A stretch of DNA of 64,000 nt from an uncultured Bacteriovoracaceae bacterium (GTDB lineage: Bacteria > Bdellovibrionota > UBA1018), in NCBI GenBank assembly GCA_964363305.1, contig CAYIHX010000015.1, forward strand, positions 1,173 through 65,172, read 5' to 3'. The notes under the pieces were generated by a model, which was not told where the DNA came from, did not search any database, and saw nothing but the letters and a program-made list of their open reading frames with translations. The position numbers and the translations under genes are program-made. The stretch's first letter is position 1; each line of letters opens with the position of its first letter. Below, in pieces: positions 6,066 through 49,729 of this stretch.

Positions 6066-7204
6066 CGCTCGAAGATCTCTTTTGAGATGATGAGCCGCTG
6101 AATCTGCGAGGTGCCTTCGTAGATCTGGTAGATCTTGGCGTCGCGCATGAGCTTCTCGACCGGATATTCGGAAGAATAACCATAACCGCCAAAGACCTGC
6201 ACGGCGTCGGTCGAGACCTTCATGGCTGTATCGGCCGCGAAAACCTTCGCCATCGCCGCCCATTTCGTATTGCGATGCCCGTGATCGATCAGCCATGCCG
6301 CTTTGTGCGTCAGCAACCGCGCGGCCTCGATGTCCTTGGCCATGTCGGCGATCATGAAACTGATCGCCTGATACGAGGCAATGGGCTGACCAAAGGTTTT
6401 GCGAGTCTTCGCGTACTCAATCGCCTCATCCATCGCCCGGCGAGAGAGTCCGACCGCACCGGCCGCGACCGGAGGACGAGTATGATCGAATGCCGCCATC
6501 GCGGTTCTAAACCCTTCTCCTTCTTTGCCGAGGAGGTAGCGCTTCGGGATGCGCACGTTCTCGAAGGTGATCCCACGCGTATCGCTCGCCTTTTGGCCCA
6601 TGTTCCATTCCTTCTTGCCCACCGAGATGCCGGGGGTTTTGGCGGGAACGATGAACCCACTCATGCCTTTGTGCTTGAGCGTGGGGTCCGTATACGCGAG
6701 CACGAAGTACCAATCGGCGACGCCGCCATTGGTGATCCACATTTTTGCGCCGTTGATGACGTAGTCATCGCCATCCTTTTTCGCAAGGGTACGAATGCCG
6801 CTGACGTCAGAGCCTGCGCCGGGTTCAGTGACGCAGTATGCGGCGAAGAGGGGTTCGGCGGTCAAACGTCCGAGAAATTCTTTTTTCTGCTCGTCATTGC
6901 CGGCGACGATGATCGGTGCAGCCGCGAGGGTGTTTGCCTCCATCGCGGTGGCAATTCCCGTGCAGCCATACGCAAGTTCTTCGGTGATGATGCATCCTTC
7001 GAGGACGCCCAGGCCGAGGCCACCGTACTCCGCGGGGATATGAGTATTCATCAGGCCCAATTCCCAGGCTTTCTTGGCGATTTCTCGCGGGAATTCACCC
7101 TTTTCGTCGTGATGAGCCGCCTTGGGGATGATTTCCTCCTTGGCGAATTTGCGGGCGAGGTCCTGGAGTTGCTTCTGTTCTTCCGAAAGGTCAAAGTCGA
7201 TCAT
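6062..7204 (-). CDS. Acyl-CoA dehydrogenase (short/medium-chain type)
   Basis: 380 aa with canonical ACAD motifs ([30 protein letters not shown]). Confidence 0.95.
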
Positions 7205-37296: not shown

Positions 37297-41448
<4,152 letters not shown>

Positions 41449-41551: not shown

Positions 41552-41626
41552 GGGCGCATAGCTCAGTGGTAGAGCAGGGTCTTTACACGGCCAAGGTCCA
41601 AGGTTCAATCCCTTGTGCGCCCACCA
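41552..41626 (+). tRNA. tRNA, most likely tRNA-Val (anticodon UAC)
   Basis: Acceptor GGGCGCA/TGCGCCC; D-arm GCTC-agtggta-GAGC; anticodon arm GGGTC-ttTACac-GGCCA (one G.A mismatch at 27-43); T-arm CAAGG-ttcaatc-CCTTG; CCA encoded. Confidence 0.75.
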
Positions 41627-42004: not shown

Positions 42005-43711
42005 ATGGCTTGGGGATTAGAGGGTTCGATGAAGTTGAAGTTTACACATGTATTGAGCCCCACCAGTAACCTCGTATTAATGGTCTACGGCTTTTTCTCG
42101 CTCTTTCTTCTTTTTTCACCCAGTCTTTCGCAAATCGGAATGGTGGTTGCCGCCGACACGATTTCGCTTTTTTTCTTCATGTTGGTTGATCGGTATTTGT
42201 TTCTGGCTATTTTTCCGGAGGCAAGGTCGATCTTTCCTGTCTTGGATTCCACCGCGTTTGACGGCGCTATCGCAGAGTGTAGAAAGTTGATGGTGCGCTC
42301 GATCTATACATTTCCTCAAAGCAGAGCGCTCTACTTATGGACCATCAGTCTTGTTAAGGTTCTTCCTGGCGCCTGTATTGTCCTTCTGGTTTGGCCACAT
42401 GAAAATCTCGGTATCGCACTGGCGAAGATGGTATTTTTCGAGTTGTCGCTCATTACCTGCTTTTCAGTTCTGGCATTTTTTGAAATTCATGAGGTTGCTT
42501 CTTCGGTCATAGATCAGTTGTTTGCTCATACGCGAGACGCCGATGTTTTCTTGGCTGTTGAGCCGTCGGACAGTGGGTCCTCTCTCATGAAGGTCGAGGG
42601 CCTCGCTCATATCTCCGTGATGTCCCTCAGTTTTGGGTTGATGTTGACCTTGGCGATCAGCACATTTGTGGGGGAGGAGCCTACGCAGCGGGTCGGGTTT
42701 CGATTTGCAGCTCTTTTTCTATTGTCTTGTCTCGTCCTCGGTCGGCTGTTCTGCACGAATCGGATGATACAGGTGCGGGCCAATCGAGATATTTTGCACT
42801 ACTTGGGAAAAATCGATCTCAGTCGTGAAACTCCCATCTTGCCTCTTCATACGTCGGTTGAGCTGAATGCTTTACAACGGGCTTTCAACCTCATGTCTGG
42901 GCGATTGCGCGATTCTCAGGACGAGCTTTCAGATTTAATTCGTTACGAAAGTGATCAGAGCCGTTTTAGGACACTTGGAGAAGTTGCGGGCTTGGTCGTC
43001 CATGATCTCAGTTCTCCCCTTCATGTGGTCAAATATTGTACTGATTTGATTCGAGGCGATCCGCAGAAAGTGACTGACGGGACGCTTTTTTTGCGGATCG
43101 AGAGGAGCTTGGACAAGGCTGTGAACTTGGTTCAATCTCTGCGGGCCTACTTGAAAGATGGTCAGAATGGCGCGTCACTCATTCGTTTCGCTGAGGCTCA
43201 CGACTATGTTCTCCAGGTTCTGGGCTTGGAATTTCAATCGAAGCTTCCGCGGCAGTTGAATGAGGTCATCAGCGTCAGGGAAGGCGTGGGAAGTGTCGCA
43301 TTGCGTTGCTACCGGATCGACCTGATTCAAATTCTCGATAACCTTTATCGGAATAGCTTGGACAATATGATCGAGACAGGCAAAGAAACCCCTCAGATCC
43401 AGGTTGCCCTGGAAGGCGTGGGGGATGGATACGCAGTGTTGTCGCTAGAGGATTCGGGGAGTGGCTTGAGCGTGGACGATTTTGAAGCGATGACATCGGG
43501 AAAGGTGTCAAAAGGGGGGTTTAGCGATCGCCGGGCTCAAAAAGGATTGGGTCTGCGGCTGACTCGACGTTTGATTGAGAGATTGGCCGGCTCTTTGTCG
43601 GTCGTGCCAGCGAAAGATGGAGCAGCTGGAACCCGAATGTTGCTGACGTTGCCACTTGCCGATACAAAACATGAAGAAGCTAGTGCGGAGGCTGCAACGC
43701 ATGGAACATGA
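42005..43711 (+). CDS. Membrane sensor histidine kinase (multi-TM N-terminus, HisKA, HATPase)
   Basis: ~7 predicted TM helices, then the dimerisation/phosphoacceptor (HisKA) region (DQSRFRTLGEVAGLVVHDLSSPLHVV), then the ATP-binding (HATPase) region (LEDSGSGLS...GLGLRLTRRLI). Confidence 0.8.
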   Translation: MAWGLEGSMKLKFTHVLSPTSNLVLMVYGFFSLFLLFSPSLSQIGMVVAADTISLFFFMLVDRYLFLAIFPEARSIFPVLDSTAFDGAIAECRKLMVRSIYTFPQSRALYLWTISLVKVLPGACIVLLVWPHENLGIALAKMVFFELSLITCFSVLAFFEIHEVASSVIDQLFAHTRDADVFLAVEPSDSGSSLMKVEGLAHISVMSLSFGLMLTLAISTFVGEEPTQRVGFRFAALFLLSCLVLGRLFCTNRMIQVRANRDILHYLGKIDLSRETPILPLHTSVELNALQRAFNLMSGRLRDSQDELSDLIRYESDQSRFRTLGEVAGLVVHDLSSPLHVVKYCTDLIRGDPQKVTDGTLFLRIERSLDKAVNLVQSLRAYLKDGQNGASLIRFAEAHDYVLQVLGLEFQSKLPRQLNEVISVREGVGSVALRCYRIDLIQILDNLYRNSLDNMIETGKETPQIQVALEGVGDGYAVLSLEDSGSGLSVDDFEAMTSGKVSKGGFSDRRAQKGLGLRLTRRLIERLAGSLSVVPAKDGAAGTRMLLTLPLADTKHEEASAEAATHGT

Positions 43712-44366
43712 TCATTCAGTTTGGGTTCTTGATGATGAGGAAGATTGTCTCTTCGTGGCGGAGCAGAGTCTCTCAGACGCGTACAACGTGAGGACTTTTT
43801 CTTCTTTGGCCCAACTTAAAGGCGCGCTCGATCAGAATCTCGATACCTTGCCGGTCGCATTGGTCGCAGATCTGAGGTTGGCGGATGGAAATTTTCTTCA
43901 GTTCTTGGATCTAGAGGCCTCTGATTTAGCCAAAATTTTTCCGATCGTTATTACTTCTTCCCTTTATGACTCGGAAACCATCCGGGGTGGTTATCATCGT
44001 GGGAGTTATGACTATTTAGTGAAGCCTTTTCGTCCGTCTGAGCTCAAGGTCAAGGTTGAGCAGGCATCTCAGAAGTTTGTTTCTGACCGAAGTAGGCGGG
44101 TTGCAAGTCAGCTGGAGTTGACCCCAAAAGAGGCGCGACTGTTCGAGTACATGCATCGGTTTGCTCCACGGGCGGTTTCCAGACAAGAGCTCCTCGCTGA
44201 GGTTTGGGCAGATATGAAGATCCATCCGAAGACGATCGATGTTCATATTCATAACCTGAAGAAGAAAATTGTCGTGGCCGGATGGATCATCGTTTCGTCT
44301 AAACTTGGGTTTTGGTCCATCACTTCAGCAGGGAGTTCAGGGGATGGGGTGCCACCATCTTGCTGA
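43656..44366 (+). CDS. OmpR-family response regulator (REC plus winged-helix)
   Basis: REC (VWVLDDEEDCLF...VADLRLADGNF), C-terminal OmpR winged helix (RQELLAEVWADMKIHPKTIDVHIHNLKKKI). Real start probably at the internal Met at ~43701. Confidence 0.8.
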   Translation: MPIQNMKKLVRRLQRMEHDHSVWVLDDEEDCLFVAEQSLSDAYNVRTFSSLAQLKGALDQNLDTLPVALVADLRLADGNFLQFLDLEASDLAKIFPIVITSSLYDSETIRGGYHRGSYDYLVKPFRPSELKVKVEQASQKFVSDRSRRVASQLELTPKEARLFEYMHRFAPRAVSRQELLAEVWADMKIHPKTIDVHIHNLKKKIVVAGWIIVSSKLGFWSITSAGSSGDGVPPSC

Positions 44367-45314
44367 GTTGTTGGGCAGCCACTTGAGTACTGTCTGAGGT
44401 TGCGAGCCAAAGACCAGGGGAAGGGCGTTCGGGTGGGAAGCTTTGCATACGAACAATGTGTTTCTGGCCTCGGCGATTTGCGATAGTGGCGTACTGTAGA
44501 TCTCGACCGAACATTCCCTAAGGAGGGGTTTGGGCGTAGGGATCTCGAGTCCCAGGGAGAGATCGCCCGAGGTCCAGGCAATGAGCTTTTTTTGACCGAG
44601 TGGGGAAAGAAGATAGTCCTGGTGAAAGTCGGGCGTGTTTGTCTGGTTCTGGTTGCCGGGTTCGGCACATTCTTCATAGAGAAACGCCCATCTCTGTATC
44701 GTCTCTCGACAGGCGGAGGCAATGGCCGCCTCTAGATCGAGGCCGGCGCCGAACCCATGAACGATAAATCGTGGGTCGCTATTCGGTCTGGGCACGATTG
44801 CTGCCATGCAGACTTCGGCATCAGAATGGGGGTCGGGGAGCGAGTAAAGCTGCATTCGATTTCCGACGCTGTCAGGTAGTTCGACGGGCCAAAACGGCAG
44901 GAGGTCCTTCGAAAGGGGTTTCGGCTTTCGCCCGGAGTACCAGTAGCGAAGAACTCTGTCTCTCTCAAGAAGCTCAAGGCACGCGCTGGCTTTTGCATTC
45001 GCGAGGTCAGGATGTGCGGCCCAACCATTCGAGCGTGAGATCGTGCAATTCGGGTCCTTAAGGGAATGGCTGGTTTTGCCTGAATGGATCAACTCCACGA
45101 TGGTCATTCGCTCGCAGAGCTCGGATCGGGCCTTTTCGAGAGCAATTTTTTCAATGAAGTCGAAACTGCTGCCTGTTACTTCGGTGGCGCTAGCGGTGTG
45201 GGTAGCCGCGAGTCCCACGAGATGTCCGGTGAGCCCCTCTTTTTGAAAGTGTTCAAAAAACGGATCAGTGAATTTCCATCTGGATTGCTGGCGTTGTGCT
45301 TCTATTTGGTGCAT
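44337..45314 (-). CDS. Compact YcaO-domain protein (325 aa)
   Basis: Two YcaO ATP-binding signature blocks: NGWAAHPDLANAKASACLELLERDRV and HGFGAGLDLEAAIASACRETIQRWAF. Compare E. coli YcaO GKGATKKAALASALGEYFERL and SAGNTRNEARVQGLSEVFERY. Last gene of a 3-gene minus-strand operon. Confidence 0.55.
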   Translation of the reverse strand: MHQIEAQRQQSRWKFTDPFFEHFQKEGLTGHLVGLAATHTASATEVTGSSFDFIEKIALEKARSELCERMTIVELIHSGKTSHSLKDPNCTISRSNGWAAHPDLANAKASACLELLERDRVLRYWYSGRKPKPLSKDLLPFWPVELPDSVGNRMQLYSLPDPHSDAEVCMAAIVPRPNSDPRFIVHGFGAGLDLEAAIASACRETIQRWAFLYEECAEPGNQNQTNTPDFHQDYLLSPLGQKKLIAWTSGDLSLGLEIPTPKPLLRECSVEIYSTPLSQIAEARNTLFVCKASHPNALPLVFGSQPQTVLKWLPNNSARWWHPIP

Positions 45315-45981
45315 ATGTTTTTTTGTTTTCGAAAATTTCTGACATGAGTTCGTTCGTGAACGTGGCGCAACGCTCTATCGAGCTGAAAATTTTATTCTGA
45401 ACATGTGGCTCGGCAGCCGTCTCGGCGAGCCAGGAGATCCAAGGGAGGATTTCATCGGCATGTTGACCGTCAATGTCCGCGTGCTTGGCGAGTACCGTCG
45501 ACCGGTCTCGAGCGATGCCTGTATTTTTTTCGACGAGCGCTAAAAATTTAGGACCAAGATACCCCGTAATATATTCGACTGAATAAATGTACGTGAGATA
45601 GCTGATCAGGTCGTTTCGGGCGACGTCATAGATCCAGAGCAAAAACGATTTCACCGCAGGAGAGTTTATGGTTTCAATTTGGAGATCGTTTCCACGATCA
45701 AGAGCAGCGAGGTCTGATCGTGCCCACTGATCATGCCCAGTTTCTTCGATTTTCTTTTGTTTGAGAAAATTTTCGAGAACATCAAGACCATCTCGCTTGG
45801 CTGTATTGATCGCGGCTGAAATATGCTCGGGCGAGTAAAGGATGAGATGTCCAACTGCGGCAATGTAGAGCGGAAAATTTTCCGCCGTGATCGAGGAAGA
45901 GGTACCATCGGCGAGCGCTGGGTGTGTTTTCCAGAGTTCGTCGCACTCATTTTTTGTTTTGACTTTGATGCTTTCGATCAT
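45265..45981 (-). CDS. Haem-oxygenase-like diiron oxidase/oxygenase (HDO; CADD/PqqC/TenA fold)
   Basis: AKHADIDGQHADE has the H-x3-D-x2-H ligand motif of CADD-type HDOs, plus upstream candidate Glu ligands (SVEYITGY). Strong SD (AAGGAGG) before ATG 45981. Confidence 0.5.
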   Translation of the reverse strand: MIESIKVKTKNECDELWKTHPALADGTSSSITAENFPLYIAAVGHLILYSPEHISAAINTAKRDGLDVLENFLKQKKIEETGHDQWARSDLAALDRGNDLQIETINSPAVKSFLLWIYDVARNDLISYLTYIYSVEYITGYLGPKFLALVEKNTGIARDRSTVLAKHADIDGQHADEILPWISWLAETAAEPHVQNKIFSSIERCATFTNELMSEIFENKKTYAPNRSTTPAIQMEIH

Positions 45982-45998
45982 AAATCCTCCTTCGAGGG

Positions 45999-46028
45999 CC
46001 GGGCCCGCATTTTTTAATGCGAACCCGG
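45999..46028 (-). promoter_or_regulatory. Strand-specific hairpin between the GNAT and HDO genes
   Basis: On the minus-strand transcript: CCGGGUUCGCAU-uaaaaa-AUGCGGGCCCGG gives a 12-bp stem with two G.U pairs. On the plus strand these become C.A mismatches. Lies between the GNAT stop and the HDO ribosome-binding site; no U-tract. Confidence 0.35.
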
Positions 46029-46070
46029 CGTAGGTAATTAATTAGAAACAGATGCGTGCAAATTTCTTCT

Positions 46071-46805
46071 TCATGATCGCTCTCCTTGGTGATGCGCGGT
46101 TAGCGCGGTTGGTGGGCAGTACCTGATCCGAAATGACTCGAGATGCTCTTGTTTGAGATGTGCTGTCATTCGGATCAGGCCTCCCAGCTTGTCAGAGAGG
46201 TAGTGTCCGGTTACGCGATAGCCGAAATGAGCATAGCGGGTCGGATTGGCTGGGTCGTCGGGGACCACGTCCAGATCTATTCTCTCAATGCTTGGTACGG
46301 AGCTGAGTTTTCTAGTGATGGTTTCAATGAGTTTTCCATAGATTCCAGAACCTCGAAACTGAGGTTGGAGGAAGACGTAACGAAGGTAGTAGGTAGTTGG
46401 GTCGGACGGGTTTGCTATCATAGCGCCGAAGAGCACGCGGTCGCCGTGCTCGTTTCGGCGATAGAATGCGAACGCGTCGCACACGTCCCCGTAAAAGATA
46501 GATCGGATGTGGAACAGCGGGTCCGTTTCTGGCGTTGTCAAAAAGTGGGCGACGTTCTCGTAATGTGTGTGTTCGACCCACTGTGATTGGTCTGCGCTGA
46601 AGATCGGGAGGCAGGTGCTCCAATCGACGCCCCAAAGGCGCGTTGACAGAGTGGGCAAAGCACAGGCTGTTACTCCCGTGGGCCCCAGAGTGTCAGCCCG
46701 TTCATGGTTTACGGCGGTATTCACGGCGACTCCTTCCTTCGAAATGAATTTTTTGATTGTTGTGGAAAAAAGGCGAGGAAAGATTTCTTTACTGCGACTC
46801 ATTGC
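46071..46805 (-). CDS. GNAT-family N-acyltransferase
   Basis: YVFLQPQFRGSGIYGKLIETITRKL is the GNAT motif A (Q/R-x-x-G-x-G/A). Start at MSRSKEIF (46805) is preferred; the ORF-track start 46886 is possible. Confidence 0.6.
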   Translation of the reverse strand, partial: AMSRSKEIFPRLFSTTIKKFISKEGVAVNTAVNHERADTLGPTGVTACALPTLSTRLWGVDWSTCLPIFSADQSQWVEHTHYENVAHFLTTPETDPLFHIRSIFYGDVCDAFAFYRRNEHGDRVLFGAMIANPSDPTTYYLRYVFLQPQFRGSGIYGKLIETITRKLSSVPSIERIDLDVVPDDPANPTRYAHFGYRVTGHYLSDKLGGLIRMTAHLKQEHLESFRIRYCPPTALTAHHQGERS

Positions 46806-46930
46806 GTCATCCTGGTGTTTCGCGGACTGAGAAATGTGTCGTGCATTATGCGATGCGTCAGATTGATGCAGCGAAGAATGCTGCATCGAATTAAGGCACT
46901 CACCGGTGCAACGGCTGAAACGGGAGGCTT

Positions 46931-47542
46931 ATGAATTTATTCGGTCAATGGATGGGGCTAAGTATTGTTTTTGGATTGCTGGTTTTCCAAGGGTCCGCAT
47001 TCGCGGATGAGATGAGGGTTGAAACTCGAGTGGTGGGCGAAAAGGATCATTGGAATGGCGCCAATATGCCCGAGAATTTAAATCGGGACTATGAGCGGAA
47101 TTTTTCGCGTCTGCCTCTGAAGGCCCGGCTATCTGACGACAAGACACCCTGGTCCGACAGCTATTGGCCGAGCCGCCGTGCGAGTATAGCGAACCGTTGG
47201 CAGACAGATGAGGGATATAGCCGCTATCGGCTCGCTTCTCTCGCGCAGCTTCGCGGTATGGATCGTGGGCAGATCGCCCGCATGTCCCCAGCGGAAAAGT
47301 ACGACATTGCAGTCGGAGATTATAACTACCGGGTGACACACATGGCTTGGGGGAGCAGCTCCCCCCGCGCCAGTGACTGGGCTGGCATCTGTAACGGCTG
47401 GTCTCAGGGGGCGCTGACCTACGACGAGCCTCGGCCGACGGATTTTGTGAATCCAGACGGTATTGTGGTTCCGTTTGCATCGAGCGACGTGAAGGGATTG
47501 ATCAGCTTTTTTACGCGCTGGGGGATAGCGACGCGGAGGTGA
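46931..47542 (+). CDS. Hypothetical secreted protein (203 aa) with AGICNGW cysteine motif
   Basis: Signal peptide MNLFGQWMGLSIVFGLLVFQGSAFA. GGGAGG ribosome-binding site. Divergent from the YcaO operon. Confidence 0.45.
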   Translation: MNLFGQWMGLSIVFGLLVFQGSAFADEMRVETRVVGEKDHWNGANMPENLNRDYERNFSRLPLKARLSDDKTPWSDSYWPSRRASIANRWQTDEGYSRYRLASLAQLRGMDRGQIARMSPAEKYDIAVGDYNYRVTHMAWGSSSPRASDWAGICNGWSQGALTYDEPRPTDFVNPDGIVVPFASSDVKGLISFFTRWGIATRR

Positions 47543-48057
47543 GTCAGATGGGTTCGCGTTGCAGTGGGCTCGGGAGCGTGTTCGGAAGTGCGGGTTGCAG
47601 CGACATTCATCCGGGGGCCTTTCACCTTGCGCTTACCAACCAAATTGGCCTTATGAACCAGGGATTTGTCGCGGATGTCGACTCGGGCTCTGAAGTCTGG
47701 AATCAGCCCGTATTCGGATATGAGTCGAGGATCTTGCAAGAGTCTTCTAGTCGAAGAGGAGCAGCGCGTGGAACGGTTCGGGAAGTGATGGTGGAGACTC
47801 GAATGTTGTTTGCGCTCGAGAGTCCGCAACAGTGGGAGCCGGTACTTGGAACCGATAAATTCGGCCAGGACTCGAAAGTCTACACCTACTGGCTCGAGCT
47901 CTCGTCGACAGGTGAGGTACTGGGCGGAAGCTGGGTCACGTCGAGTCGTCCTGATTTTATTTGGACCACGACGAAATCAGAATTCAGGGGGGCTTTCGAG
48001 GGTCTGAGGCAAATCTATCGCCCACTGGGTAGGCAGCCTGGAGTCCCGTTTCCTTAG
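47539..48057 (+). CDS. Hypothetical protein (172 aa), translationally coupled to 46931-47542 (GTGA overlap); may be the C-terminal half of one disrupted gene
   Basis: GTG start overlaps the upstream stop. No domain recognised. Confidence 0.35.
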   Translation: MSQMGSRCSGLGSVFGSAGCSDIHPGAFHLALTNQIGLMNQGFVADVDSGSEVWNQPVFGYESRILQESSSRRGAARGTVREVMVETRMLFALESPQQWEPVLGTDKFGQDSKVYTYWLELSSTGEVLGGSWVTSSRPDFIWTTTKSEFRGAFEGLRQIYRPLGRQPGVPFP

Positions 48058-48464
48058 ATCCTCTGCTCTCGAGGGTTGGACCTCGAGATGACTAGGATTT
48101 CTAACGTTCGAACTGTAATAGATACGGCCTTCTCCCATTGAGTTGAGAGGAGGTCGTCTTGCATTCCTTCGCTGATGGTTTTCCAGTCGCTGGGGCGGAT
48201 CCACGCATCCCATGCGATATCGGCCACAATGGAAAATTTGTGGGTCCTTTTGTTGAGGTAGATCAACAGTCCTGCACGATTCCCTATTTTATCGAGGCCG
48301 TGCCGATAAAACCAGCGGAGAGCTTCCCTTCTGGAATCGCGAACCCCTGGTTTGACGGAGCTGTGCACGTGAATTTCTAGCCCTGCTCGAGTTTTCGCTT
48401 CGGCCAGGGCTTCGATAAGGGGCGAGATGGGTTGTTTACCAGCTTCCATCGATTCCTCCAGCAT
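48054..48464 (-). CDS. TPM-domain protein
   Basis: EALRWFYRHGLDKIGNRAGLLIYLNKRTHKFSIVADIAWDA matches the TPM (TLP18.3/Psb32/MOLO-1) core. Start trimmed to an internal Met. Confidence 0.5.
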   Translation of the reverse strand: MLEESMEAGKQPISPLIEALAEAKTRAGLEIHVHSSVKPGVRDSRREALRWFYRHGLDKIGNRAGLLIYLNKRTHKFSIVADIAWDAWIRPSDWKTISEGMQDDLLSTQWEKAVSITVRTLEILVISRSNPREQRI

Positions 48465-49125
48465 CTGCCCCGGCTTTGCCGAGTCGTCCATAGGTAGCCA
48501 CTTTGATCCAGCCGATGGGCGTATAGTAGGCATCTCTTCTGCTCAATAGGTAGATGATCAGAGTTAATAGGGCTGTTATTCCGATCATCAGAAATACGAA
48601 GAGGGCGGGCGAGCTGAGGGTATTGCTTGGGGTTACGGAGGGGGGGGTGGGCGTTATTTTAATACGAGCAGATTTGAATTCCTGCGACTCGGCGACCGGG
48701 CTGGCCTCGTTTTCTAGTCGGTCCAGGAGCGTTTTTGCGATGAAGGTCGCATCTCCCTCCCCTGTGAACGTCAGCGCATCGGTCAACGGGGTGTCGGTCG
48801 CCGCCCATGCAAGACGCTTTCTCGACAGATCGATGACGAGAAGCTGACCGTGGGGGGCGCCGGCAGCCCCGATTCTCCACCAGCGGCTGAGGCTTGCGGC
48901 GAATGCACTGATGTCTTTATGTGGAATTTGCTGGAAGACGCCGACCAGGGTTTCTTCGCCCGTCTCGCTTTCATGGGCGATCAGGAGGGGGCCAATATCG
49001 CGGGCTAGCAGCTTGGGAGTTTCTCCCTGGCTATACCAAAACGCCGAGACGGGACGGTCGGGAAGAGTGGCAGAGGAGGACGCTGCCGCAAGGGCGATGC
49101 TCGTGAAAAGCGCGAAGACGTTCAT
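48436..49125 (-). CDS. TPM-domain membrane protein (signal, TPM, Pro-rich linker, TM)
   Basis: Start at MNVFALFTSIALAAASS (49125); TPM-like core; TM helix ALFVFLMIGITALLTLIIYLL. Confidence 0.5.
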   Translation of the reverse strand: MNVFALFTSIALAAASSSATLPDRPVSAFWYSQGETPKLLARDIGPLLIAHESETGEETLVGVFQQIPHKDISAFAASLSRWWRIGAAGAPHGQLLVIDLSRKRLAWAATDTPLTDALTFTGEGDATFIAKTLLDRLENEASPVAESQEFKSARIKITPTPPSVTPSNTLSSPALFVFLMIGITALLTLIIYLLSRRDAYYTPIGWIKVATYGRLGKAGADAGGIDGSW

Positions 49126-49150
49126 CTTGCCTTCAGTGTAGACTGAAATC

Positions 49151-49729
49151 ATGAAGGCAGCCACCCGCTGGAAGGAATCGTTTTTGAGTCTGCAGTTGAC
49201 CTGGGGAGCGCGATTTGAGCGCTTGCTGACCGGGGCGGTCAATCGCCTGAATATTCGAGGAGCTAAATTCGTCCAGCCGTCTTTTCAGCTGAAGATGATC
49301 GGATTCACTTTCTGTGTCTCGTTGATAACGCTAGTGCTCTCGTTTTTGGGTTTGAGGTATGGATTTTTTCGGACATACGAAATTCTCGGATCCGAGGGAT
49401 TTATGCCCTCTCATCCGGTCTATCGTTTCATTGCCGGCCAAGAATTGCTGATGTCTTCGATTTTTTTCTCGGTGCTCATGATCAGTTCGCTCCTGAGTTT
49501 CGTGGGCGGGTTGGTCTATTCACATAAAATTGTTGGTCCCATCTATCGAATGCGAAAACACCTTCTGGCGGCCGCGGGAGGTCGAGCCCCCTCGCCGCTT
49601 CGATTTCGTCAGGGGGACTTTTTTCAGGAACTAGCGGATGCATATAATGAGGAGCTTTATTCTCGGGGACGGTTGCGTCGGCCGGGTTCGCAGGTGGAGA
49701 GAGATTATCGCGAGGGTTTGAAGGAGTGA
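49151..49729 (+). CDS. Hypothetical membrane protein
   Basis: Two or more TM helices; no domain recognised. Confidence 0.35.
   Translation: MKAATRWKESFLSLQLTWGARFERLLTGAVNRLNIRGAKFVQPSFQLKMIGFTFCVSLITLVLSFLGLRYGFFRTYEILGSEGFMPSHPVYRFIAGQELLMSSIFFSVLMISSLLSFVGGLVYSHKIVGPIYRMRKHLLAAAGGRAPSPLRFRQGDFFQELADAYNEELYSRGRLRRPGSQVERDYREGLKE

Follow-up and report, generated by a model that had tools for sequence, protein, structure and literature searches.

The stretch of DNA analyzed here, called the window, is a 64,000-nucleotide segment (positions 1,173 to 65,172, forward strand) of contig CAYIHX010000015.1, assembly GCA_964363305.1, from an uncultured Bacteriovoracaceae bacterium. It carries a minus-strand cassette that looks like an undescribed minimal, leaderless peptide-maturation system, based on YcaO, akin to those of ribosomally synthesized peptides that are modified posttranslationally (RiPPs), and usually linked to a sensor kinase. 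We consider it probable, with considerable room for doubt, that the four genes of this locus make up a leaderless minimal RiPP cassette, consisting of a GNAT acyltransferase, a 10-codon precursor, a heme-oxygenase-like diiron oxidase (HDO), and a small YcaO, that is co-conserved with a two-component sensor. The original prediction had described three of these genes, GNAT, heme-oxygenase-like, and YcaO, as an operon that is a candidate for modifying a peptide or a small molecule. The open reading frame (ORF) listing places all three on the minus strand of the window at the positions predicted (Table 1). The operon is a conserved unit, plausibly and even probably peptide modifying, and the secreted-protein substrate proposed for it is not supported.

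RESULTS

The cassette genes recur in a fixed order

A scan of species-representative genomes with a 5-sequence YcaO alignment returned 26 loci, all from metagenome-assembled genomes (MAGs) labeled mainly Bdellovibrionota/Oligoflexia and Myxococcota. A metagenome scan with a 17-sequence YcaO alignment added 71 loci with the same pattern, giving 97 loci altogether, including untyped metagenome contigs. The neighborhood comparison that had been proposed as a check on the triad showed that its members do co-occur: the GNAT, HDO, and YcaO genes share order and strand in about 20 of the 26 genome loci (local phmmer) and in most of the metagenome loci. An independent start from the HDO family, with contig look-up, led to the identical layout. 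The recurring order is GNAT, micro-ORF, HDO, YcaO. Every HDO gene adjoins or overlaps the YcaO gene of its locus, which suggests translational coupling; the overlap in the window is 50 nucleotides (nt), as predicted, and the strong ribosome-binding site reported for the middle gene is present (Table 1). Judged from these gene neighborhoods, the view that the three enzyme genes form a conserved functional unit is supported.

Two kinds of variant were found. In six loci where the HDO gene is absent (Table 1), a B12-binding radical S-adenosylmethionine (B12-rSAM) enzyme of 535 to 576 amino acids (aa) adjoins the GNAT gene, and the micro-ORF and YcaO gene remain. This enzyme may stand in for the HDO without depending on oxygen, or it could carry out a different tailoring step. 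Two loci, L020 and L022, have no GNAT gene and keep the peptide, HDO, and YcaO. Because the micro-ORF persists with YcaO when the HDO is replaced or the GNAT is absent, the peptide and YcaO appear to be the core pair. The partners that the original prediction had noted as absent from the vicinity of YcaO were not found on a wider view either: neither the window nor the conserved neighbors of 27 loci (8 kb) included an E1-like/Ocin-ThiF protein, a RiPP recognition element (RRE) protein, TfuA, or a SagB/McbC-type flavin mononucleotide (FMN) dehydrogenase.

A 10-codon ORF with a conserved sequence lies between the GNAT and HDO genes

Gene callers annotated nothing between the GNAT and HDO genes, either on metagenome contigs with genes identical to those of the window or in other loci, and the original prediction had stated that no precursor micro-ORF was evident. 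Direct reading of the variable GNAT-HDO spacers revealed one. In the window it encodes MKKKFARICF (computed monoisotopic mass, 1270.704 Da unmodified); its ATG (46074-46072) overlaps the TGA stop codon of the GNAT gene as ATGA, and its own stop codon is at 46044-46042. It has its own Shine-Dalgarno (SD) motif, and an equivalent AAGGAG/GGAGG motif stands upstream of the micro-ORF in other loci. A strict micro-ORF pattern occurred exactly once per locus in 22 loci, at a constant position, compared with a chance expectation of 0.003 per shuffled locus. A relaxed pattern allowing GTG starts recovered six more loci; after this, L012 and L004 (the latter truncated by its contig end) were the only ones without a micro-ORF. 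Among metagenome loci with a GNAT gene upstream of YcaO, about 35 of 37 contain it. The micro-ORF is conserved in about 70 of the 97 loci examined.

With the C-terminal half left unconstrained, the search returned 61 distinct peptides, of which 59 are 9 to 10 residues long. The penultimate residue of these 59 is Cys in 22, Ser in 19, and Thr in 18, that is, one of the three in every case. Ala (54 of the 61 distinct peptides) or Ser occupies position -5, Phe (also 54 of 61) or Tyr occupies position -6, and nearly all end in a hydrophobic residue. The peptides follow the rule (K/R)2-3-F/Y-A/S-x-x-[C/S/T]-hydrophobic-stop. The other two peptides, of different length and at different positions, resemble chance matches. 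The amino acids are preserved despite synonymous codon changes, and conservation of the peptide exceeds that of the enzymes, whose identities are 20 to 33%. Cys, Ser, and Thr form the nucleophile class that YcaO cyclodehydratases use. MKKKFARICF is probably the peptide that the cassette enzymes modify.

A 14-bp stem-loop separates the micro-ORF from the HDO gene in the window. The 121-nt segment that contains it has a minimum free energy of -44.8 kcal/mol (z = -5.2), none of 200 shuffled sequences was as stable, and no U-tract follows it. Analogous stems of unrelated sequence reach z < -2 in 16 of the 26 genome loci, with U-runs after the stem in some low-GC loci. A known riboswitch or other RNA element in the GNAT-HDO spacer was considered and rejected, as there was no Rfam match.

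Several further observations concern the micro-ORF and its spacer. Small-ORF clustering at a threshold of at least 30 codons, which is longer than the micro-ORF, yielded only antisense artifacts inside large GC-rich genes (c5 and c15). At L019:7197-7226, L025:7155-7184, and L026:7155-7184, a GTG-start micro-ORF lies in another frame within the long stretch by which the called GNAT is extended at its C terminus; either the GNAT truly ends earlier or the two genes overlap substantially. In L003, a run of masked bases (N) at about 7100 to 7110 in the GNAT-HDO spacer has a duplication of about 60 nt at its flanks, and the spacer length there is unreliable. Paired cassettes are present in L049, L072, and L075/L076, in which a second GNAT-micro-ORF-HDO set lies 1 to 2 kb past the first YcaO gene; the peptides of paired cassettes differ (for example, MKKKFAHCCI versus MKKRFSLGTM). 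L050 and L097 share contig JADMIO011305994.1 in an alternative pairing, with two YcaO loci about 9 kb apart.

The YcaO protein belongs to a family of small, stand-alone YcaOs

The window YcaO matched Pfam PF02624 at 56.1 bits (cutoff, 25.7), the match being confined to profile positions 103 to 240, and scored far below the cutoffs of the NCBIfam SagD and McrA-type models. The ATP-binding blocks named in the original prediction were borne out as well: across alignments of 40 and 17 sequences, E65/E68/R69, S95-N96-G97, E114/E117/R118/D119, and E204/Q207, which make up the ATP/Mg motifs, are invariant or show conservation of at least 90%. We take these motifs, also on the basis of alignments to TruD and LynD, to be the published ATP motif of Escherichia coli YcaO. 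The family consensus ends in HPIA, with H322 and P323 invariant, a conserved tail that falls short of a full PxPxP.

A word-indexed homologue search with the YcaO found only the query itself, and exhaustive HMMER searches were needed to find its relatives, 558 in total, with 302 cluster representatives at E <= 1e-10. Nearly all of these representatives are 300 to 350 aa long. The small size is consequently a family trait and not a quirk of the window copy, and the protein can no longer be called an unusually small YcaO, 325 aa being normal among the 302 representatives. Among Protein Data Bank (PDB) sequences, the family profile matched TruD, LynD, MusD, two methanogen McrA-type YcaOs (6ci7 and 6pe3), and McbD. 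The AlphaFold model (pLDDT, 90.4; pTM, 0.90) was compared with the PDB by Foldseek, and the 41 best matches were all YcaO enzymes, with E values down to 6e-9 and TM scores of 0.5 to 0.56. The fold check that had been suggested thus returned a YcaO fold.

The middle protein has the ligand set of the HDO family

On sequence matches and its predicted fold, the middle protein is an HDO-family member with a complete set of putative ligands. It was assigned to this family because its PDB and profile matches, its invariant ligands, and the matches of its model agree. The H-x3-D-x2-H motif noted in the original prediction lies on one core helix (H167-x3-D171-x2-H174) and is accompanied by E80, H83, and E136; all six putative ligands are invariant in two independent family alignments. 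W86, D90, and Y131 are invariant too, and K76 is invariant in alignment A3 and at least 90% conserved in alignment A4. Binding of two metal ions and O2 activation are putative functions of the protein.

A word-indexed search with the middle protein found only itself, and its relatives came from a profile search. The window protein matched nothing in Pfam, even at E <= 10, and nothing in NCBIfam; PF14518 was matched by 13 of 19 family members (best E value, 1.2e-8). In the PDB, phmmer found 3DDE, a structural-genomics protein of Shewanella with a heme-oxygenase-like fold, at E = 6.5e-8 over residues 20 to 221, and the family profile found 3DDE (4e-17), UndA, and CADD/4-aminobenzoate synthase. 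The AlphaFold model (pLDDT, 88.8; pTM, 0.87) gave heme-oxygenase-like structures in Foldseek: 3DDE (TM score, 0.75), CtCADD, UndA, TenA, HrmI, BesC, PqqC, and HO-1. The protein shares the fold and the 3-His/3-carboxylate ligands, including H-x3-D-x2-H, with 3DDE, UndA, and CADD, at identities of 14 to 18%. Known HDOs such as UndA and CADD act on free fatty acids, amino acids, or their own side chains and not on a YcaO-paired peptide.

The first gene encodes a GNAT-fold acyltransferase

The profile check on the first gene agreed with its designation as a GNAT: the protein matched PF00583 (Acetyltransf_1) at 22.9 bits, above the cutoff of 20.7, as did 22 of 23 family members (best E value, 2.7e-12). 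Independent gene calls choose the start at 46805. In the PDB, the family profile matched YqjY, a polyamine acetyltransferase, YpeA, Naa30, EctA, and RimI, so that its nearest relatives of solved structure acetylate small molecules or N termini. The N-terminal region, about 100 residues long (LWGxDW...LP), is peculiar to the family. The acyl-CoA pyrophosphate-binding motif Q/R-x-x-G-x-G/A reads Q-F-R-G-S-G in the window.

Kinase genes accompany the cassette in two phyla

A kinase gene lies directly downstream of YcaO in at least 42 of the 64 loci with enough downstream sequence, which is an undercount because the coordinate filter missed L019 and L024. In the Bdellovibrionota loci and the window alike, YcaO is followed by an OmpR-type regulator gene in convergent orientation and by a gene for a histidine kinase that has about six transmembrane (TM) segments. 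Orthologues of the regulator come directly after YcaO in L008, L010, L016, and L021 and nearby in L003 and L020, and the same six loci contain full-length orthologues of the kinase (residues 12 to 555, including the membrane sensor; 25 to 33% identity). The histidine kinase/OmpR pair, which had been noted as context, belongs to the conserved neighborhood. In Myxococcota, the same-strand gene right after YcaO encodes a protein of 1,760 to 2,000 aa with the domain order Pkinase-AAA_16(STAND)-TPR-GAF-HisKA-HATPase_c-receiver and no TM segment. On two annotated contigs (L029 and L032), a LuxR/GerE-type regulator gene lies divergently upstream.

L020 (JBLHVN010000001.1), a 2.0-Mb contig, is titled Sulfitobacter sp., an alphaproteobacterium, and carries the HDO and YcaO genes and the micro-ORF MKKFALISL. 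Its 6-TM kinase is orthologous to those of Bdellovibrionota. This suggests horizontal transfer or a mislabeled MAG.

TABLE 1 Positions of the cassette genes, their signals, and associated genes in the window and in related loci
Feature	Position	Strand	Basis or remark
GNAT-fold acyltransferase, 244 codons from ATG 46805	46071..46805	-	PF00583; longest ORF starts at 46886
SD motif AAGGAG of micro-ORF	46082..46087	-	7 nt upstream of ATG, inside 3' end of GNAT gene
Micro-ORF MKKKFARICF, 10 codons plus TAA, candidate precursor (core) peptide	46042..46074	-	Conserved position, length, and sequence
14-bp stem-loop GCCGGGUUCGCAUU-AAAA-AAUGCGGGCCCGGC	45998..46029	-	12 nt past micro-ORF stop, immediately before HDO SD motif
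SD motif AGGAGG of HDO gene	7 nt before HDO ATG	-	Sequence
HDO family protein, 238 aa	45265..45981	-	PDB sequence and profile matches, predicted fold, ligand set
Stand-alone minimal YcaO, 325 aa	44337..45314	-	Pfam, motifs, predicted fold; C terminus WWHPIP
OmpR-type response regulator	43656..44366	+	Pfam Trans_reg_C and Response_reg; convergent with YcaO, 30-nt overlap of YcaO 3' end
Sensor histidine kinase	42005..43711	+	Pfam and hydropathy: about six N-terminal TM helices (residues 23-250), HAMP-like, HisKA, HATPase_c
B12-rSAM enzymes	L006:5323-7053, L017:4607-6337, L016:5361-6968(-), L042:194-1957, L053:3-389, L043:996-2669(-)		Loci without HDO
Giant Myxococcota kinases	L013:8982-14261, L009:9041-14572, L017:8285-13807, L029:8325-13883, L032:5378-10882	YcaO strand	

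DISCUSSION

A proposed pathway

Leaderless minimal RiPPs exist. The window shows one hallmark of RiPP loci, a precursor gene located with its tailoring enzymes, and does not show another, a leader or follower peptide with an RRE, as the whole ORF has only 9 to 10 codons. In the pathway that we propose, the ribosome would produce a 9- to 10-mer that serves as the substrate of the cassette. YcaO, with ATP, would O-phosphorylate the amide carbonyl of the residue preceding the penultimate Cys, Ser, or Thr, whose side chain would then attack; the ring so formed, a thiazoline or a (methyl)oxazoline, would lie one residue away from the C terminus. Because the peptide has no leader, this YcaO may do without an E1-like or RRE partner. 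The HDO would follow with an O2-dependent oxidation, either of the azoline to an azole or as a desaturation, hydroxylation, or oxidative decarboxylation of the hydrophobic C-terminal residue; the nearest precedents are UndA-type decarboxylation and VarO-type desaturation. In some lineages, the B12-rSAM enzyme would fill the tailoring slot of the HDO. The GNAT would acylate the N-terminal amine or one conserved lysine.

A more speculative step, drawn from gene linkage only, is that the small cationic modified peptide acts as a signal or ligand for the linked kinase; alternatively, the kinase would control production of the peptide. The agrBDCA and comQXPA loci combine the gene for a short ribosomal peptide with those for the enzyme(s) that modify it, for a polytopic histidine kinase of about six TM segments, and for a response regulator. 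The present cassette differs from those loci in having no AgrB- or ComQ-like enzyme and no exporter, in its OmpR-type regulator, and in the cytoplasmic kinase of Myxococcota, and its signaling role is putative. Stated in full, the idea is a new RiPP class, namely, acylated azol(in)e mini-peptides made by a partner-independent mini-YcaO, an HDO or B12-rSAM enzyme, and a GNAT and serving as dedicated ligands of co-encoded kinases. We put this forward tentatively and give it clearly less than an even chance. If true, it would mean a previously unknown form of peptide signaling in two phyla that include predatory bacteria, with new HDO peptide chemistry.

Comparison with known systems

The original prediction held the YcaO-HDO-GNAT triad to be undescribed, and a full-text literature search, mostly without subscription journals, found no published description of the cassette, its novelty being unproven to that extent. 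The pairing of a YcaO with a heme-oxygenase-like protein had already appeared in the thiovarsolin cluster of Streptomyces varsoviensis, which comprises varA, VarY (YcaO), VarT (TfuA), and VarO (heme-oxygenase-like) and whose products are N-acetylated (PMC6511847). To call the pairing unprecedented would be too strong, because thiovarsolin combines both enzymes with N-acetylation. The two systems are alike in joining a YcaO and a heme-oxygenase-like oxidase to a very small ribosomal peptide, with N-acetylation there and a GNAT here. Thiovarsolin biosynthesis differs in that it needs TfuA, makes a thioamide, starts from a long repeat precursor, and is actinobacterial (PMC6511847), and its acetylation is due to a host enzyme outside the cluster, whereas here the GNAT is encoded in the cassette. 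The cassette, unlike the thiovarsolin cluster, has no TfuA, a single 9- to 10-mer with an invariant Cys, Ser, or Thr, and a distinct clade of YcaOs of about 330 aa. A March 2026 review of HDOs cites thiovarsolin as the sole case of HDO-mediated ribosomal-peptide modification (PMC13108848).

The YcaOs of the linear azol(in)e-containing peptides, thiazole/oxazole-modified microcins, and cyanobactins (McbBCD, LynD/TruD, and SagBCD) share with the window protein the YcaO fold, the ATP/Mg motifs, and the Cys/Ser/Thr nucleophile class. They differ in their E1-like/Ocin-ThiF leader-binding domain and FMN dehydrogenase, neither of which was found within 8 kb here, and the TM scores are only about 0.5.

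By analogy, bottromycin and the biarylitides are the closest systems in logic. Bottromycin biosynthesis uses the stand-alone YcaOs BotC and BotCD with no E1-like or RRE partner, a precursor with no N-terminal leader, and B12-radical-SAM methyltransferases. It places a thiazoline near the C-terminal end of the core, and an oxidative enzyme acts after heterocyclization. The cassette shares B12-rSAM variants with it and differs in having only one residue after the nucleophile. Recognition of the bottromycin precursor depends on a follower of about 35 aa, which dedicated hydrolases later cut off; the oxidative enzyme is a P450 instead of an HDO, one of the two YcaOs makes a macroamidine, and there is no GNAT. 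The biarylitides, which are actinobacterial, arise from a 5-codon leaderless precursor gene and one P450 that forms the biaryl cross-link, and the product is N-acetylated. The micro-ORF resembles theirs as an extremely short precursor gene that lies beside a tailoring enzyme and is easily missed by gene callers, whereas the biarylitide chemistry is of another kind altogether and the cluster has no YcaO, HDO, or GNAT.

Points against the proposal and rival explanations

A number of findings weigh against a leaderless RiPP cassette with a sensor of its own. Joint gene conservation is what was observed; the product, its translation, and the activities of the enzymes are inferred from sequence. 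Azoline-forming YcaOs usually require an E1-like/Ocin-ThiF partner and use an FMN dehydrogenase, and both are absent here. The HPIA/HPIP C terminus resembles the PxPxP motif of cyclodehydratases only in part, and about half of the GNATs aligned have a degenerate CoA motif, such as YRDRRV or YRERRF. The YcaO relatives in L012, L041, L045, L054, L056, and L058 occur without a micro-ORF, GNAT, or HDO; these may be a separate subfamily with another substrate. No protease or exporter was found among the conserved cassette neighbors, and an extracellular signal is less likely for that reason. With no sensor domain common to the two kinase architectures, a shared ligand is not obvious. A 9- to 10-codon ORF followed by a hairpin also looks like a regulatory leader peptide.

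That resemblance is the starting point of one rival account, in which the micro-ORF is a cis-regulatory leader peptide that controls the HDO and YcaO genes by stalling or attenuation at the hairpin, with a small molecule as the substrate of the enzymes. In an ectoine-like chemistry, for example, an amino compound might be N-acylated and cyclodehydrated with ATP to give an azoline or a cyclic amidine, which would then be oxidized. This account would explain why the ORF has only 9 to 10 codons and why a strong stem-loop stands 4 to 24 nt further on, before the SD motif of the next gene; the terminator-like U-runs past the stem in some low-GC loci, the weak match of the GNAT to the diaminobutyrate acetyltransferase EctA, and the failure to find a leader peptide, RRE, protease, or exporter in the window and its conserved neighbors all suit it as well. 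Stalling, however, leaves the penultimate Cys, Ser, or Thr in 59 of 59 peptides unexplained, which counts against this account, short of excluding it. The fixed length and register of the peptide and a conservation that outdoes that of the enzymes also argue against it, as does the window hairpin, which has no U-tract and matches no known RNA element. Stem-loops after precursor genes are, moreover, typical of RiPP operons. We judge the leader-peptide account improbable.

If the micro-ORF does encode a modified peptide, the evidence fits equally a mini-peptide that is an antibiotic, a toxin, or a metal-binding compound, maybe used by Bdellovibrionota and Myxococcota in predation or competition, with kinases that merely regulate its production. 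Among azol(in)e peptides, antibiotics and metallophores are common. The DNA-binding regulators (OmpR type here and LuxR/GerE type in Myxococcota) could simply control the operon, and kinase sensors specific to each phylum fit regulation better than they fit recognition of a shared ligand. This use of the peptide nevertheless strikes us as unlikely. Genes for immunity, export, or uptake are not conserved in the cassette neighborhood, a 9- to 10-mer with a single heterocycle is small compared with known azole antibiotics, and the Myxococcota kinase gene, on the same strand right after YcaO, is probably part of the same operon, which would be unusual for a mere regulator.

It is highly improbable, in our estimate, that the enzymes instead modify a protein, such as the adjacent kinase or regulator, in the way that YcaO and TfuA thioamidate McrA, with the micro-ORF incidental. 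Such a target would account for a kinase linkage kept across two phyla, in which HisKA, HATPase, and receiver are the only domains common to both kinase types, and both protein-modifying YcaOs (6ci7 and 6pe3) and protein-acetylating GNATs (RimI and Pat) are among the PDB matches. It leaves unexplained a micro-ORF of fixed length, with an SD motif and an invariant Cys, Ser, or Thr, in about 70 loci. About one-third of the loci with downstream sequence, moreover, have no adjacent kinase, and no conserved target motif was identified in the kinases.

Significance

If the leaderless RiPP cassette is what these loci encode, they would represent a compact and widespread YcaO system with a leaderless substrate of 9 to 10 residues. 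It would be among the simplest systems for YcaO amide activation without a recognition partner and would provide a second, mechanistically different example of an HDO in ribosomal-peptide maturation. Bdellovibrionota and Myxococcota are known for predatory and social behavior, and a peptide-maturation cassette tied to sensor kinases in both would suggest an unrecognized signal or a regulated effector. The case would also show that gene callers and RiPP miners can overlook precursor genes that have only about 10 codons and overlap the preceding stop codon.

Genomic context of the window

The cassette segment is bounded by rpoC and tRNA-Val (41552-41626) on one side and by rpsB on the other. The description of the segment as tRNA-proximal and accessory thus holds for the tRNA; its base composition shows no clear difference from that of the flanks. 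The secreted protein pair at 46931-48057, which had been offered as a possible substrate, consists of the two halves of a single transglutaminase-elicitor homologue: the ORFs at 46931-47542 (+) and 47539-48057 (+) match PF16683 positions 11-156 and 192-333, respectively. They are in different reading frames with a 4-nt overlap, which makes them a candidate for a frameshifted pseudogene, programmed frameshifting, or an assembly error. On an independent contig (L001), the N-terminal part of the PF16683 homologue is split at another place. The adjoining, overlapping ORFs at 48054-48533 (-) and 48436-49242 (-) have weak TPM-domain (PF04536) matches, and the product of the latter has a hydrophobic stretch at its C terminus. 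Among the neighbors of 27 loci, neither the transglutaminase-elicitor nor the TPM-domain genes (46931-49242) are conserved beside the cassette, which also sets aside the pair as a substrate.

An anti-phage defense system was considered and rejected, as PADLOC gave zero matches. A promoter scan returned 1 promoter-like site versus 5.7 expected and is uninformative for the cassette. A terminator scan returned 16 terminator-like sites versus 13.9 expected, all on the plus strand and none at the micro-ORF hairpin. Long ORFs antisense to rpoC (39751-41241 [-], 496 aa) and to rpoB are typical of GC-rich coding DNA and are without independent support. Genes identical to those of the window were found on Hainich groundwater metagenome contigs.

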